Below, in pieces: positions 58,083 through 64,000 of a stretch of DNA of 64,000 nucleotides (the first letter of the stretch is position 1; every line of letters begins with the position of its first letter). The stretch covers positions 92,441 through 156,440 of the forward strand of contig JAKUPZ010000003.1 of the NCBI GenBank assembly GCA_022449765.1, in the 5' to 3' direction. Under the pieces are notes generated by a model. That model worked only from the letters and a program-made list of their open reading frames with translations, did no database searches and had not been told where the DNA came from. Position numbers and translations under genes: made by a program. This DNA is from Dehalococcoidia bacterium. GTDB taxonomy: Bacteria; Chloroflexota; Dehalococcoidia; Lucifugimonadales; Australimonadaceae.

Positions 58083-58436
58083 TCAGGAAATTAATGTTTG
58101 ATTAGGGATATGCACGAGTATTCGATCGTCTACAATCCGAACTTCATAAGAGGTTGTATCCCAAGTGTACTTATCGAGACATTCCCCTGTTTGTAAATCA
58201 AAAACTGCAGAATGAAGAGGGCAAATTATTTCTCCAGGGTCTATTAGCCCATGGCTTAACATTGCGCCCTGATGGGGGCAATAATTGTCTAAGGCTCCTA
58301 CGTTTTGACCATCCCAAAATAATGCTATTTCATTTCTTCCTAATGTTGGGTGTTCGAATTGAAATGATAGGGTCTTTTTAGATTGAAGTTCTTCAAAGGA
58401 GCATAGATCAAATTCTTGAGCGCTAGTTGGATTCAT
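58083..58436 (-). CDS. Rieske [2Fe-2S] ferredoxin-like protein
   Basis: CPHQG...(17)...CPLHS Rieske motif. 117 aa. Confidence 0.8.
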   Translation of the reverse strand: MNPTSAQEFDLCSFEELQSKKTLSFQFEHPTLGRNEIALFWDGQNVGALDNYCPHQGAMLSHGLIDPGEIICPLHSAVFDLQTGECLDKYTWDTTSYEVRIVDDRILVHIPNQTLIS

Positions 58437-58441
58437 TGAAA

Positions 58442-58858
58442 TTATTGAATCTCTATAAGAGTTTGGCCCGCGTTGATAGTTTGATCTTTTTTAACTTTTA
58501 TATTTTTAACTTTCCCTGGCTTGGACATGCGAACACTTTGTTCCATTTTCATAGACTCAAGTTTGCAGATTTCATCGCCTGTTTCCAAGAGCTGTCCTTT
58601 TTCGACGCTAATGGAGACAATTTTGCCAGGCAATGGGCAACGTACCGATCGCTCATCCCCTTTACTTTCCCCTCGTAATCCAGGTAGTTCTGTTTTGGGA
58701 GCTTGCTTTCGGCGCTTGGGCGTTACACCGTCAGCTGGAGCACCAATTTCCACAGAGAATGTTTCACCGTCGACTACGACTTCTACAGGACTTTGATAGG
58801 TGTCACCTACTTCAATGTCATACCATTCTTCATCAATTCTTAACCGAAGACGCTTCAT
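58442..58858 (-). CDS. biotin carboxyl carrier domain protein (C-terminal part of a split acyl-CoA carboxylase alpha subunit)
   Basis: ATG at 58858 (MKRLRLRIDEEWY) overlaps the upstream TAA as TAATG. Biotinylation motif ESMKME. 138 aa. Confidence 0.8.
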   Translation of the reverse strand: MKRLRLRIDEEWYDIEVGDTYQSPVEVVVDGETFSVEIGAPADGVTPKRRKQAPKTELPGLRGESKGDERSVRCPLPGKIVSISVEKGQLLETGDEICKLESMKMEQSVRMSKPGKVKNIKVKKDQTINAGQTLIEIQ

Positions 58859-60342
58859 TAAAAGTCTCCATTTAATTTGCTTACCATTGCCATGCGCCTT
58901 CCATGCATTTTCCATTTACTAGGAGATTGTGCATCCGCATGACTTTGGGCCATCACCATAGATAGTGCAATAGCGGCTACTATGCTTTTGTTTACAGAAG
59001 CCGGTGAGTTCAACAATTCTTCCAAGAATCCGTTATCAAACGTCGCTTTCTTGAAAATTTTATGCTCTAGCACTCGCTTAATTAAGGGTAGATTGACTAC
59101 AGGGCCTTCAATAATATATTCATCAATTGCAGCGAGCATATTGGCTATTGCAGATTCTCTATCTTTTCCTCTTACAATTAATTTAGACATCATGGGTTCA
59201 TAGTAGGGAGAAACCTCATAGCCTTCGAAGAGGGAACTATCTACACGAACATTGTAACCTTTTGGCTCGTTAAGTTTTGAAACGGTACCAGCTGTCGGTA
59301 GAAGCATAACAGGGTCTTCCGGATAAATTCGAGCCTCTATCGCTGCACCGTGCTGTTCGACGTCATCTTGATTAAGGGGAAGAGGTTCTCCCGAAGCTAC
59401 TCGTAACTGCAGCTCTACTAGGTCGACACCTGTCACCATTTCGGTAATGGGATGTTCCACTTGCAAGCGAGTGTTCATTTCGAGGAAATAAAAATTTTCT
59501 CCGTCACCATCAAGCAGGTATTCAATAGTGCCAGCATTACTGTACCCAATATTTTTGGTAAGCATGACAGCTGAATGTAAAAGAGCTTCTTTCACATTCG
59601 GTTTCAATTTTACGCATGGTGTTTCTTCGATAACTTTTTGATTTCTGCGTTGAACAGAGCAATCTCTTTCAAAAAAATGGATCGCATTTCCGTGTTGATC
59701 GCCCATGATCTGCACTTCAACATGCGATGCGTGTTCTACTCGCCTTTCAATGTAAACTCTGGTACTTCCAAAAGCTCCCTTAGCTTGTGCACGCGCTTGA
59801 GCAAGTGCTTCTAAGAGCGCGGAAGTTTCACGTACGACTCTAATGCCCATACCACCACCACCGTCGGCGGCCTTGATCATTAGGGGGTATCCAATTTTTT
59901 CAGCTGCCTCAAGAGCTTCAGAATCCTCGATTTCTCCTTCGGTCCCGGGTATAACAGGAACGCCCGCCTGTATAGCTAATTTACGAGCTTGAACCTTATC
60001 TCCCATTTGTTGAATGATGTTTGAAGAAGGCCCGATAAAAGCAATGCCGGCTGCTTCTACAGCCTGCACGAAGGACGGGTTTTCAGATAAGAACCCGTAT
60101 CCAGGGTGAATAGCTTGAGCTTTTGCCTTTTTTGCAGCTTTAATAATTGCTGAGGCATTGAGGTAAGAATCTGCTGGGGAAGCACCACCGATATTAATGG
60201 CATGATCAGCCATTTTCACATGCAGGGCGTTCTCATCAGCATTGGAATAAATAGCAATGGCAGTTACACCTAGCTTTTGGCAGGTTTTGATAACACGGCA
60301 TGCAATTTCACCGCGATTGGCTATAAGAACTGAGCTGAACAT
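58858..60342 (-). CDS. biotin carboxylase (ATP-grasp) subunit with a C-terminal extension
   Basis: MFSSVLIANRGEIACRVIKT, ATP-grasp GGGGMGIRVV, EMNTRLQVEHP. 494 aa. Confidence 0.92.
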   Translation of the reverse strand: MFSSVLIANRGEIACRVIKTCQKLGVTAIAIYSNADENALHVKMADHAINIGGASPADSYLNASAIIKAAKKAKAQAIHPGYGFLSENPSFVQAVEAAGIAFIGPSSNIIQQMGDKVQARKLAIQAGVPVIPGTEGEIEDSEALEAAEKIGYPLMIKAADGGGGMGIRVVRETSALLEALAQARAQAKGAFGSTRVYIERRVEHASHVEVQIMGDQHGNAIHFFERDCSVQRRNQKVIEETPCVKLKPNVKEALLHSAVMLTKNIGYSNAGTIEYLLDGDGENFYFLEMNTRLQVEHPITEMVTGVDLVELQLRVASGEPLPLNQDDVEQHGAAIEARIYPEDPVMLLPTAGTVSKLNEPKGYNVRVDSSLFEGYEVSPYYEPMMSKLIVRGKDRESAIANMLAAIDEYIIEGPVVNLPLIKRVLEHKIFKKATFDNGFLEELLNSPASVNKSIVAAIALSMVMAQSHADAQSPSKWKMHGRRMAMVSKLNGDF

Positions 60343-60450: not shown

Positions 60451-60717
60451 CTAGTTTCGAAATCCTCCCCGATCTTCACGAGGTCGGGCTTCATTTACGT
60501 TTAAAGTCCTTCCAGCTAAATCGGTTCCATTCAGTCCTTCAATAGCACTCTGAGCTTGGCCGCCATCTGGCATTTCCACGAAGCCAAAGCCACGGGACCT
60601 TTCTGTGTAGCGGTCAATTGCTACGCGAGCTTCAACGACTTCGCCAAATTGCTCAAAAGCACCTCGTAACTCGTCGTCATTGGTGCTATAACTTAAATTT
60701 CCAACGTATATCCGCAT
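60451..60717 (-). CDS. RRM-type RNA-binding protein (glycine-poor short form)
   Basis: ATG 60717 lies 8 nt after AGGAGAAAG. RNP2 IYVGNL and RNP1 RGFGFVEM. Confidence 0.87.
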   Translation of the reverse strand: MRIYVGNLSYSTNDDELRGAFEQFGEVVEARVAIDRYTERSRGFGFVEMPDGGQAQSAIEGLNGTDLAGRTLNVNEARPREDRGGFRN

Positions 60718-60873
60718 TCGGTGCACTTTCTCCTATATACCCAAACAACTCGGAGGCACCGCTACCTTTCGGCGTGTCGGTCCGCTGGGAACTTCTGGTA
60801 GCCACTCAAGCTCATGGGCACCCTTTTCGTAGGGTGACTTGGTATCAGTATACTACGAATTAGCAAACTGAGA

Positions 60874-62526
60874 CTAAATGACTCCTAGCATGTGATACTG
60901 GACGCGATTTTTCCTTTGTACGCCCATCTTCATTATTTGCCTTGCCGGACGTGTTGCCTCATTGGGGAACACTTTTATCCATTCCTTGTCAATTATAGGA
61001 ATATCGGCATAATCCTGAACTAAGATGGTTACTAGCCCGATGTCGTCGACTATACCTTTACCGCTTTCCACTAATGACACTAGGTTTTGTAATCCATGGG
61101 CTGCCTGCCCTTCAATTCCTTCAACAGGCTCAAGCTTATCGTTACTATTTGGATCAACTCCTGATACCCCTGAGGAGCAGTACAGGTTTCCTATGCGCGC
61201 ACCCATTGGAATCGGATCGTGATGCCCATGGCCTTCAATTTCATGGTTTGATCGGGTTTCGTTGATGTTTCCGATCACTTGGATTTGTATTTGACCGGAC
61301 ATTGGATACCGGAATGTTTTACGCGCAGCTTGGTAAGAGTTAAGGGGCCATGCCTCGAGGTATACATCAACCATAAATGGCTGATAAGCGAAGTCGTTCA
61401 AATAGACCCATTGCAGTGCTATATCGTCTACCGTGCCACCAGCTTTTTCCATAAAAACTCTCATGTTTTCAAAACACTTATCAGTTTGAGCATCTTCCCC
61501 AATTACCGGTTCAGAAGTTGATAAATCCCAAGGCACTATTACTGAAGAGAATACATAGCTACCCATTCTGACACCATTTGGTAATGGGTCTTTGTGAGTC
61601 AATCCTTGAATTTCTATGCTGGTTCTTTTTTCTCCGGCTACTCCAATTGCCTGTAGCTGGACCCCCCCCTTTCCGGCAGGAAGAGGGAACGAGGTGGTTT
61701 TTCGTGCTGGTCTATTGTTAGCGTCGGGAAATAACTCTAGCCAACCAGGATTGATATGCGCACGAAAGTCTTGATTGTCGATGAAATTTGTTATTAGGCC
61801 TATTTCATCTGTTGAATGCCCCGCAGCTTCTACCAATGTTTTCAAATTTCCCCAAGCATTTTTAAACTGAAGAGCAGGTTCTTCTGGGATTTCTCCTGTA
61901 GCCAAATTGATACCCGATATTCCAGATGTGAATAACAAGCCTCCAACCTCTACAAAATCGGGTGCGATACCTTCTTGAGAAGATAGCCCGGGAAGGTTGG
62001 TAATTTTTTTAAATTTACTTTGCGAAGGGGCAATATTAACGGCTAGGGGGATTGTTTTTGCGGGTCTAAGTGCTGGCCTAATATCTTTGTTTTGAAGACG
62101 CAGCATAGTTTCCGGTCCTACCAACGCTTCTGCACCTGCTAGGGCTAACTTTTCATCTTCGTCCTCGTTACCTGTTCCACTAACACCTATCCCTCCGATA
62201 ACTTGGCTTCTGCGATGAATGGTTAACCCTCCATGGAGAGTAGTAATTTTATTATTGGACCAGTCTGCGATTGTACGACCGTCATGGGTGATTTGTTGAC
62301 GGTAAATTGAAGTATCACGCCCGATGTAGGATGCAGTGTAAGCCTTCCGCTCAGCATTAAGTACATCACTGGCAGATGTACCATCTTGCCTGATCAATAG
62401 GACTATTTCGCCATTTTCATCTACTATCGCGACAGCAAAAGGATTTCCTGCAGAGATTCCTTTTGAAAGAATGGCGTCGATAGCCCTTTGAGCATCTTCT
62501 ATCTCAAGAGTTTCTTTTGAGGGCAT
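60874..62526 (-). CDS. fusion protein: GlcG/DUF336 domain + three tandem RidA (YjgF/YER057c/UK114)-like domains
   Basis: Residues 1 to about 140 parallel the standalone ORF 62820-63260 (ERKAYTAS / ARAKAYTAA; TTLHGGLTI / TTLQGGLVI; VIGGIGVSG / VIGGIAMSG). Residues from about 175 to 550 hold three repeats of about 120 aa, each ending with an (P/A)AR(K/Q) motif (RPARKT, QAARKT, RPARQI). Confidence 0.75.
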   Translation of the reverse strand: MPSKETLEIEDAQRAIDAILSKGISAGNPFAVAIVDENGEIVLLIRQDGTSASDVLNAERKAYTASYIGRDTSIYRQQITHDGRTIADWSNNKITTLHGGLTIHRRSQVIGGIGVSGTGNEDEDEKLALAGAEALVGPETMLRLQNKDIRPALRPAKTIPLAVNIAPSQSKFKKITNLPGLSSQEGIAPDFVEVGGLLFTSGISGINLATGEIPEEPALQFKNAWGNLKTLVEAAGHSTDEIGLITNFIDNQDFRAHINPGWLELFPDANNRPARKTTSFPLPAGKGGVQLQAIGVAGEKRTSIEIQGLTHKDPLPNGVRMGSYVFSSVIVPWDLSTSEPVIGEDAQTDKCFENMRVFMEKAGGTVDDIALQWVYLNDFAYQPFMVDVYLEAWPLNSYQAARKTFRYPMSGQIQIQVIGNINETRSNHEIEGHGHHDPIPMGARIGNLYCSSGVSGVDPNSNDKLEPVEGIEGQAAHGLQNLVSLVESGKGIVDDIGLVTILVQDYADIPIIDKEWIKVFPNEATRPARQIMKMGVQRKNRVQYHMLGVI

Positions 62527-62528
62527 GA

Positions 62529-62816
62529 CTAAACACCTTCAACTACAAATACATTCGACGTCGCTGCAGTTTCTCGTATGCCAATTATTGCTTGATATTC
62601 TTTTGAGTAATACCAATTGTTGAGGGAGTCCATATCAGGGAATTCAATGATTACTGTTCGCGCAGGTTCCCATTCACCTTCAAGAACCTTACTTCCCCCG
62701 CCACGAACTAGAAATTTACCGCCATACATGGCAATAGTATCGGGAACTTGACTGCTATAAGACTTGTAAGATTCAGGGTCATTTATACTCACATTTGCAA
62801 CTACATAAGCACTCAT
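62529..62816 (-). CDS. DUF1330-family (dimeric alpha/beta-barrel) protein
   Basis: 95 aa. MSAYVVANVSINDPESYKSY...GGKFLVRGG...VIIEFPD pattern. Confidence 0.72.
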   Translation of the reverse strand: MSAYVVANVSINDPESYKSYSSQVPDTIAMYGGKFLVRGGGSKVLEGEWEPARTVIIEFPDMDSLNNWYYSKEYQAIIGIRETAATSNVFVVEGV

Positions 62817-62819
62817 AAT

Positions 62820-63260
62820 TTATACCTCCAAAGCCTGTAATCCAATGCTTGCTAAAGCTTCATCTCGCATGGTTGAATTCCCGCTCATCGCGATTCCACC
62901 AATAACATGATTAGTCTTTGATTTAATGACCAGTCCTCCTTGGAGAGTAGTCAGTTTAGGGTCACCCCAATCTCCTAAGCTCCGACTAGAAGCTTTAACG
63001 AAATCATCACGAAACACGACCGTGTCAATACCAAGACGCGCAGCGGTATATGCTTTTGCGCGAGCTCTACCAAGCATTCTGGCGGGAGCCCCGTTTTGCC
63101 GCATACAAAGTACTTCAATGCCATTCGAATCAGTTATAGCTAATGCCCCTGGGCTGTCAGCTGAAGTCATAGCGTTAACGATGGCATCCCTAGCCTTTGT
63201 AGCTTCACTCAGGCTTATGCTCGTTGTTTCAAACATTAGTGCCCCCTTTAACTCAGGCAT
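62820..63260 (-). CDS. GlcG/DUF336 (HbpS-like) protein
   Basis: 146 aa. ...AKAYTAARLG..., TTLQGGLVI, VIGGIAMSG motifs typical of DUF336. Confidence 0.75.
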   Translation of the reverse strand: MPELKGALMFETTSISLSEATKARDAIVNAMTSADSPGALAITDSNGIEVLCMRQNGAPARMLGRARAKAYTAARLGIDTVVFRDDFVKASSRSLGDWGDPKLTTLQGGLVIKSKTNHVIGGIAMSGNSTMRDEALASIGLQALEV

Positions 63261-63290: not shown

Positions 63291-64000
63291 TTAGGAAACT
63301 TGATTGAGAAATCCGATCAGAAGCTGGTTGTACAGATCTGAATGCTCTATTTGAGGCCAATGCGCACAGTGCGGGAGGATGATGGTAGTGCAACTGGGTA
63401 TAACCGAGCCCGCTTTGATTGCAGCATCCATTAAAATTTCTCGGTGCGTGCTAGGGTAAAACCAAATTTCATCCCTACCATGTAATAAAAGAGTAGGAAC
63501 TTGAAGCAGATGTAAATAATCTACAGAACCGTCTGATCCTCGTCTTTTTATTTGGCCTAGGGAGTTTTCCTTTGCGAATTCATAAGCATCCCGATCATTA
63601 AGTGTGTTTAACCGGCAGCGGGTAATTTCATCCACCATCGGATGATCTCTGTCATAGAAGAAATCTGCTGTGGCTTTATACATATCTTCATAACTCAACT
63701 GAGGTTTAGAAAACATCTCCCTGCCAAAGTCCATACGAGGCGTAGCACGAACCGCCCCTAATTATCATACTACATTTGTCTCGACACTCGGATCACAACC
63801 ACTGATCGTTAAGCTAAGGAACAATTCGGGGTCGTCTGAAGCAAACTTACTGATAGTCATTCCTCCCATGGAATTACCAACAAGATGAGGATTACGTATT
63901 TCTAAAGACTCAATAAATGTATGGAGGAAATAGACAGGCTTGGGGGTTTTTGCATTTGGATTGAGAGTTTTTGAGTTACCGAACCCCGGGGCATCCGGTG
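63291..64000 (-). pseudogene. alpha/beta-fold hydrolase (C-C bond/meta-cleavage-product hydrolase-like) interrupted by an in-frame TGA-TAA; 5' end outside the window
   Basis: The upstream part (64000 to 63768) encodes ...PDAPGFGNS...HLVGNSMGG (nucleophile elbow) and ends at TGA (63767-63765) TAA (63764-63762). The same frame resumes and holds ATG 63734, the HGRDE Asp region, and HCAHWPQIEH (catalytic His). Confidence 0.6.

Follow-up and report, generated by a model that had tools for sequence, protein, structure and literature searches.

A DUF336 domain joined to three diverged Rid repeats in a Dehalococcoidia genome, one fusion state of a conserved DUF336a, DUF336b and triple-Rid cassette

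The fusion gene and its cassette

The stretch of DNA considered here, referred to below as the window, comprises 64,000 nucleotides of contig JAKUPZ010000003.1 from a Dehalococcoidia bacterium of the phylum Chloroflexota. On its minus strand, as are all of the features for which window coordinates are given in what follows, positions 60874..62526 hold an ATG-initiated open reading frame (ORF) of 550 amino acids, taken from the ORF listing of the window and ending in a stop codon at 60874-60876, that encodes a DUF336 domain, a linker and three Rid repeats. We conclude with high confidence that this ORF is one state of a conserved cassette composed of two DUF336 units, DUF336a and DUF336b, and a triple-Rid module, namely the state in which the second of the DUF336 units is fused to the module.

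The N-terminal domain (aa 7-132, 62131..62508) matches PF03928, the HbpS-like/DUF336 family of Pfam, with E = 1e-25 and a score of 90.5 bits against a cut-off of 25, and both this score above gathering and a GlcG-like fold place it in the family. Phmmer searches of the PDB match it to EfgA, HbpS and NahX, while Foldseek finds the DUF336 structures 4nkp, 9jth, 6bws and 3fpw with target TM-scores of 0.8-0.88 at 26-33% identity. The linker that follows (aa 137-172, 62011..62118) is predicted by AlphaFold2 to be the end of a long helix and then coil; it is variable and absent from the family consensus conservation. Beyond it Pfam reports three stretches of PF01042 (Ribonuc_L-PSP, the Rid family), at 76.3 bits for the whole protein. 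When the protein was cut into four pieces and each was scanned separately against Pfam every repeat was also detected alone, with E = 7.9e-9 for repeat 1 (aa 170-300), E = 5.3e-5 and 23.7 bits for repeat 2 (aa 301-423), slightly below the gathering score of 27.3, and E = 4.3e-6 and 27.2 bits for repeat 3 (aa 424-550), against the same gathering score. The domain count of the initial annotation, one PF03928 and three PF01042, is thereby borne out. Each repeat matches different single-domain RidA/YjgF chains by phmmer against the PDB, and profile match and fold together establish membership in the Rid (YjgF/YER057c/UK114) superfamily. A self-BLAST of the fusion protein detected no internal repeats because these are too diverged, with pairwise identities of 27-30%, and it is the profile and PDB matches that reveal them.

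Immediately upstream of the fusion gene lies a DUF1330 gene of 95 amino acids (62529..62816, Pfam E = 1.5e-34) and beyond that a standalone DUF336 gene of 146 amino acids (62820..63260, Pfam E = 2.3e-18), the three genes being separated by spacers of 2-3 nt. The fused DUF336 domain and the standalone gene two positions upstream are 41% identical (E = 1e-26), so that the paralogy noted at the outset holds, and in a tree of 18 DUF336 units two lineages, 'a' and 'b', are cleanly separated, with the standalone gene of the window in 'a', the fused domain in 'b' and the order a-b-3xRid constant. Judged from these sequences DUF336a and DUF336b are distinct, ancient lineages. The DUF1330 gene has a patchy distribution in the family: of 34 sampled loci 3 have it between a and b, and in loci L002 and L007 it occupies the same position as in the window.

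The constancy of this arrangement was evaluated in 67 metagenome loci, annotated by means of HMMs that derive from Pfam-validated sequences; 35 of these loci had at least 1 kb of sequence upstream. In 34 of the 35 both DUF336a and DUF336b precede the triple-Rid module, in that order. These 34 loci fall into three fusion states: 24 are separate, with DUF336b and 3xRid encoded by distinct, overlapping genes, 7 have the b-fused state of the window and 3 are fully fused. Examples of the two extremes are the ∼380-aa triple-Rid gene P0067, which has two DUF336 genes upstream and overlaps with the end of the nearer one, and relatives of ∼700 aa that carry two DUF336 and three Rid domains on one chain. 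DUF336a is an obligatory partner in the cassette and not a casual paralogue.

Since DUF336b and 3xRid are separate, overlapping genes in most relatives, one might ask whether the ORF of the window is an artefact in which adjacent genes have been joined by an assembly or sequencing error. The chance of this is vanishingly small. Independent assemblies from ENA, NCBI, JGI, Tara and Logan contain the same fusion architecture at 99, 88, 79 and ∼69% identity, in some cases on contigs of Mb scale, and the contig of locus L016, 98.8% identical to the window at the DNA level, also carries the fusion ORF. Many independent assemblies contain the fused frame, with its linker of ∼35 aa, at identities of 55-99%, and it is present in 7 of the 34 sampled loci and in several divergent clusters. 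The recurrence of the same ORF in independent assemblies rules out misassembly and a concatenation of separate genes, a concern that had been raised together with the first description of the ORF.

A profile of the triple module searched against 1.84 billion cluster representatives returned 83 clusters at E <= 1e-30 and 429 at E <= 1e-10. Members that are in register are either ∼360-400 aa long, corresponding to the triple module alone, or ∼510-561 aa long with a Pfam-confirmed DUF336 domain. Separately, P0142, P0146 and P0157 (∼500-515 aa) have four PF01042 stretches each and are 4x-Rid proteins. Genome matches to the fusion family are to metagenome-assembled genomes of SAR202 and other Chloroflexota; the cassette is carried by several ocean assemblies of SAR202 and is found as well in marine, sediment and soil metagenomes. 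Automatic database labels on members include 'RidA family protein', 'heme-binding protein' and, from JGI, '2-iminobutanoate/2-iminopropanoate deaminase'.

Fold and pocket residues

The AlphaFold2 model of the fusion protein, computed from a 67-sequence alignment, has a pLDDT of 90.8 and a pTM of 0.90. In Foldseek searches of the PDB single RidA chains each cover one repeat, with a target TM-score of ∼0.85, and the only chains that span the whole of the triple module, over ∼360 columns, are those of the chorismatases Hyg5 (5ag3, 5a3k) and FkbO (4bps), which superimpose with target TM-scores of 0.55-0.60, 10-13% identity and an rmsd of 5-7 Å. The model and this alignment lend indirect support to a predicted fold in which the three Rid repeats form one covalent pseudo-trimer, as in the chorismatases and as was originally suggested.

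Rid repeat 1 occupies aa 173-300 (61627..62010), repeat 2 aa 301-423 (61258..61626) and repeat 3 aa 424-550 (60877..61257). When the repeats are aligned with the E. coli RidA of NC_000913, the motifs RPARKT, QAARKT and RPARQI that had been singled out in the initial annotation all fall on the catalytic Arg105, giving R275 (codon 61702-61704), R402 (codon 61321-61323) and R529 (codon 60940-60942) in repeats 1, 2 and 3, respectively. Arg105 binds carboxylate in RidA and TdcF; RidA cannot hydrolyse imines without it, and within Rid1-3 its presence is predictive of activity (PMC4433059). All three arginines are invariant among the 67 close relatives. Other conserved residues are R255, N259, T277 and Q292 in repeat 1, H311, D313, T404, Q414 and Q416 in repeat 2, and E429, H435, H436, D437, Q543 and H545 in repeat 3. 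Invariant polar residues in the 67-sequence alignment are concentrated in the Rid module, where repeat 2, with 48 invariant columns, is the most constrained, followed by repeat 1 (26) and repeat 3 (20).

A deeper comparison, involving 31 representatives down to ∼20% identity, separates the repeats more clearly. R275 is retained in 28 and R402 in 30 of these relatives, and R529 in 9. The polar set conserved across the deep relatives comprises H311, D313, E429, H435, H436, D437, Q543 and H545, with the noted residue present in 23 sequences for H311, 22 for H435, 20 for H436, 24 for D437, 27 for Q543 and 19 for H545. The alignments indicate that the three repeats are differentiated, with two Arg pockets kept family-wide and the third remodelled in deeper relatives, where by sequence a Glu/His-His-Asp loop and a Gln-x-His strand define repeat 3 instead of the Arg. 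Such differentiation has occurred because the three 'subunits' sit on one chain. The repeat-specific conservation supports three pockets that are probably non-equivalent, in keeping with the earlier suggestion. Individual repeats can be clearly matched as orthologues (R1 to R1 and so on) down to ∼35% identity, a correspondence that is lost towards triples of the canonical type.

It is also apparent that the repeats lie outside the RidA subfamily. The positions equivalent to RidA Tyr17 are A188, L315 and I439, and those equivalent to Glu120, a Glu reported to be kept in all eight Rid subfamilies (PMC4433059), are Q290 (Glu in some relatives), Q414 and Q543. Against TIGR00004, the model of the RidA subfamily, the repeats score 23-29 bits each and the whole protein 68.8, with a cut-off of 106.25, whereas the control P0229, a distant RidA-type triple, scores 234 bits. 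In each repeat of the canonical-type triples P0229, P0244 and P0246 the pocket follows the RidA pattern F/N/R/(A,C)/E. The TIGR00004 scores and the replaced Tyr17 and Glu120 led us to reject canonical RidA membership for the window protein, the Arg105 equivalent alone being in place. The RidA/YjgF hallmarks that had been ascribed to each repeat therefore stand in so far as PF01042 and the Arg are concerned and fall short at the level of the subfamily.

The best PDB sequence match of the DUF336 domain is EfgA, a formaldehyde sensor (E = 9e-13), whose pocket residues R42, K57, S114 and D121 correspond to R46, K61, S116 and D124 in the fused domain and are conserved in both a and b. The EfgA paper describes these residues as largely conserved across DUF336; being generic to the family, their conservation shows an intact pocket and points to no specific ligand. 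In the fully fused relatives P0032, P0033 and P0035 the S116 equivalent of DUF336b is His, and all of the separate or b-fused examples that were examined have Ser at this position.

Genomic neighbourhood, proposed function and rival explanations

In the clade of the window the cassette has an upstream synteny of hisA/F-HAD-hisIE and a downstream synteny of an RRM protein, biotin carboxylase, biotin carboxyl carrier protein, a small Rieske protein and uvrA; for L003, a high-GC locus, only the synteny of HAD and accC was used. The gene directly downstream of the fusion gene, from which it is separated by 147 nt, encodes a 91-aa RRM-type RNA-binding protein (60451-60726, PF00076 E = 1.4e-22) and has a conserved position in L002. 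The interval 58083-60342 then holds genes for biotin carboxylase (494 aa), a biotinyl-carrier-like protein and a Rieske-type protein of 117 aa, followed by uvrA. The carrier-like ORF contains an ESMKM motif and shares 58 nt with the biotin carboxylase gene, and the order of carboxylase, carrier and Rieske genes is conserved in L002, L009 and L003. Just upstream of the cassette an alpha/beta-hydrolase gene (63291-63998, BphD/HsaD-like) extends past the end of the window. It contains two consecutive in-frame stops (TGA TAA) at 63762-63767, within a locally diverged stretch, and the orthologue is intact both in L016, at the nucleotide identity given above, and in L002 (298 aa). The break reflects either a pseudogene specific to this strain or an error in the local assembly. 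A scan for promoters and terminators around the cassette gave nothing above shuffled expectation.

Outside this clade the neighbours vary and include alpha/beta-hydrolase, Amdase, ABC transporter, cupin and amidohydrolase genes. The recurrent extra neighbour is a Rieske/LigXa_C-type oxygenase, which 6 of 32 sampled loci contain at a distance of 3 kb or less and which is occasionally adjacent to and co-oriented with the cassette; it is 20 nt upstream in L014 and two genes away in L004 and L011. In L013 (1-15155 of an 888-kb contig) the 3xRid gene P0125 is located amid at least 8 paralogous Rieske/LigXa_C oxygenase genes. We regard the association as suggestive and not general. In L014 (8808-11638) a glutamine-synthetase-like gene (PF00120) adjoins a Rieske/LigXa_C oxygenase beside the DUF336::3xRid gene, a pairing that resembles clusters of the aniline-dioxygenase type; hydantoinase A/B, GST and aldehyde dehydrogenase genes are nearby. 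An assignment of the cassette to a pathway on the basis of its neighbours was rejected, as only the DUF336 pair is constant and the Rieske/LigXa genes occur at the frequency given above.

Our proposal for function, tentative and somewhat short of an even chance, is that the Rid3 pseudo-trimer might be the catalytic core of a DUF336a/b complex whose substrate would be an intermediate that bears a carboxylate and is of the imine, enamine or hemiaminal type. It builds on the architecture, the fold, the conservation, the cassette order and the fusion states, and from these we infer the complex, the catalysis, the class of substrate and any binding of metal. In the scheme that we envision the triple-Rid chain would form a ∼1:1:1 complex with a DUF336a/DUF336b heterodimer, and the pockets of R275 and R402 would bind one or two small carboxylate-bearing substrates. 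The reaction could be hydrolysis or tautomerisation of a reactive intermediate of the imine, enamine, hemiaminal or aldehyde-derived type, with the third pocket, rich in His/Asp/Glu, perhaps acting in acid-base catalysis or binding a metal. The DUF336 units, with their intact R/K/S/D pockets, would bind or hand over a small ligand, either an aldehyde such as formaldehyde or a tetrapyrrole, and in this way might gate, feed or sense the Rid reaction; fusion would then be one protein-protein contact made permanent. We further raise, as an unlikely outcome, that DUF336a, DUF336b and triple-Rid together constitute an unrecognised heteromeric enzyme or sensor belonging to the core genome of SAR202-type Chloroflexota, in which an Arg pocket has been converted to a His/Asp (possibly metal) site and the DUF336 partners dock on other faces. 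Were this the case, chemistry new to the Rid family would be expected, for example on the hemiaminal, imine or formaldehyde-type products of Rieske demethylases, and DUF336 would gain its first defined protein partner.

Several observations weigh against a catalytic complex of this sort. For the fully fused relative P0035 the AlphaFold2 domains are confident, yet the pTM is only 0.58 and the linkers are disordered, so that a compact a-b-Rid3 assembly is not confidently predicted. At the position of the Glu common to all Rid subfamilies the window protein has Gln in each of its three repeats, and imine hydrolase chemistry is consequently not assured; the low TIGR00004 scores belong here as well. 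The divergent 3xRid of L013, P0125, has no DUF336 gene nearby, and the neighbours other than DUF336 vary widely, from his genes, hydrolases and Amdase to ABC transporters and Rieske oxygenases.

The proposal has to be considered alongside other explanations. The cassette could encode an ordinary housekeeping RidA, that is a 2-aminoacrylate/2-iminobutanoate deaminase protecting enzymes dependent on pyridoxal phosphate (PLP), incidentally triplicated and fused, as the JGI deaminase label on members would have it and as might be expected from the presence in all three repeats of the Arg essential for deaminase activity and from the location of the cassette among housekeeping genes (his genes, accC, uvrA) in the clade of the window. 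We doubt this strongly, given repeats that score a fraction of the TIGR00004 cut-off reached with ease by the true RidA-type triple P0229, the replacement of the Tyr17 and Glu120 equivalents and the fact that neither a threonine dehydratase nor any other PLP enzyme is near the cassette in any locus examined; an obligatory DUF336 pair would, moreover, be left unexplained. Alternatively, the chain might not be catalytic at all and the cassette might be a stress or ligand sensor, with the DUF336 pair sensing an aldehyde in the manner of EfgA or heme in the manner of HbpS and the Rid pseudo-trimer acting as effector or scaffold. EfgA is, as noted, the best PDB sequence match, its pocket residues are conserved in both DUF336 units, and in some loci the cassette lies beside oxygenases of the Rieske/LigXa/VanA type, a class that includes formaldehyde-releasing demethylases. 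The DUF336 proteins characterised so far are, in addition, sensors or binders and not enzymes (PMC8153426). Nonetheless, a sensor of this kind seems to us unlikely: the pocket residues are generic to DUF336, polar residues of the Rid repeats are the most strongly conserved, as active-site residues typically are, the cassette lacks an output domain such as a DNA-binding domain or kinase, and the Rieske association is limited to the minority of loci described above.

The superposition on Hyg5 and FkbO, the only solved chains to cover the whole triple module, raises a different possibility, a chorismatase-like lyase or hydrolase with a single composite site for chorismate or a related enol-pyruvyl or aromatic precursor, and these two enzymes do illustrate that single-chain triples of the fold can evolve new chemistry. 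The sequence identity and rmsd of the superposition are poor, however, no chorismatase model in Pfam or NCBIfam matches even at E <= 1, two or three separate Arg pockets are conserved and not one site, and the DUF336 partnership is without parallel among the chorismatase matches or in the literature searched, all of which makes this explanation highly improbable. Membership in the chorismatase family (FkbO/Hyg5/XanB2) was rejected on the grounds of the absent family-model match and the low identity.

Significance and comparison with known systems

Rid and DUF336 are very large families and most of their members are without known function. A strictly conserved partnership that also occurs in three independent states of gene fusion provides strong 'Rosetta-stone' evidence of joint action, and the cassette, which in the window consists of two genes, is an easily cloned system with which to look for function beyond that of RidA and EfgA. 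It offers as well a natural example of an obligate homotrimer that has been covalently linked, in which symmetry has been lost, two Arg pockets appear to have been kept and one has apparently been remodelled to be His-rich. The conserved synteny in SAR202 means that the function of the cassette may bear on the processing of organic matter by these bacteria.

As to homologous systems, the homotrimeric proteins RidA, TdcF, RutC and UK114 share with each of the repeats the fold, as judged from the target TM-scores, and a carboxylate-binding Arg on the equivalent strand, but they are built of ∼130-aa subunits with three identical sites at the interfaces, whereas the single chain of the window is predicted to have three different sites. 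The DUF336 proteins EfgA, HbpS, NahX, GlcG and the C-terminal domain of PduO have the fold of the N-terminal domain, and the pocket residues of EfgA are kept. Solved DUF336 relatives contain several copies of one chain, EfgA being described as a homotetramer, while here two distinct paralogues occur together with a triple-Rid module. Our literature search yielded no paper linking DUF336 with Rid proteins, nothing on SAR202 and RidA and nothing on the function of NahX.

The closest parallels to the triple module itself are of two kinds. Niehaus et al. 2015 named '3x-RidA' proteins, which they described as 'presumably covalently linked trimer units', and reported that 2x and 4x Rid forms also exist and are rarer (PMC4433059); beyond that work the literature search found no biochemically characterised 3x-RidA. 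These proteins, such as EF_0115 of Enterococcus faecalis, are like that of the window in having three tandem Rid/YjgF domains on one chain, with the Arg105 equivalent. Their domains belong to the RidA subfamily, as in P0229, which those of the window do not, given the replacement of Tyr17 and Glu120, and the repeats of the window are differentiated from one another and form a module that is tied to two DUF336 units. The chorismatases FkbO, Hyg5 and XanB2 (4bps, 5ag3, 5a3k) provide a full single-chain pseudo-trimer with non-equivalent repeats, as is predicted here, and differ in their very low sequence identity to the window protein, in the lack of any family-model match between the two, in having no DUF336 partner and in conserving other residues. 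The claim in the initial annotation of an architecture not previously described thus has to be divided. With 3x-RidA named in 2015, pseudo-trimers solved and members of the present family already annotated automatically, single-chain triple-Rid proteins and the idea of a covalent pseudo-trimer are known; new are a triple that is differentiated and not of the RidA type and the obligatory presence beside it of two DUF336 paralogues, in any of three states of fusion.

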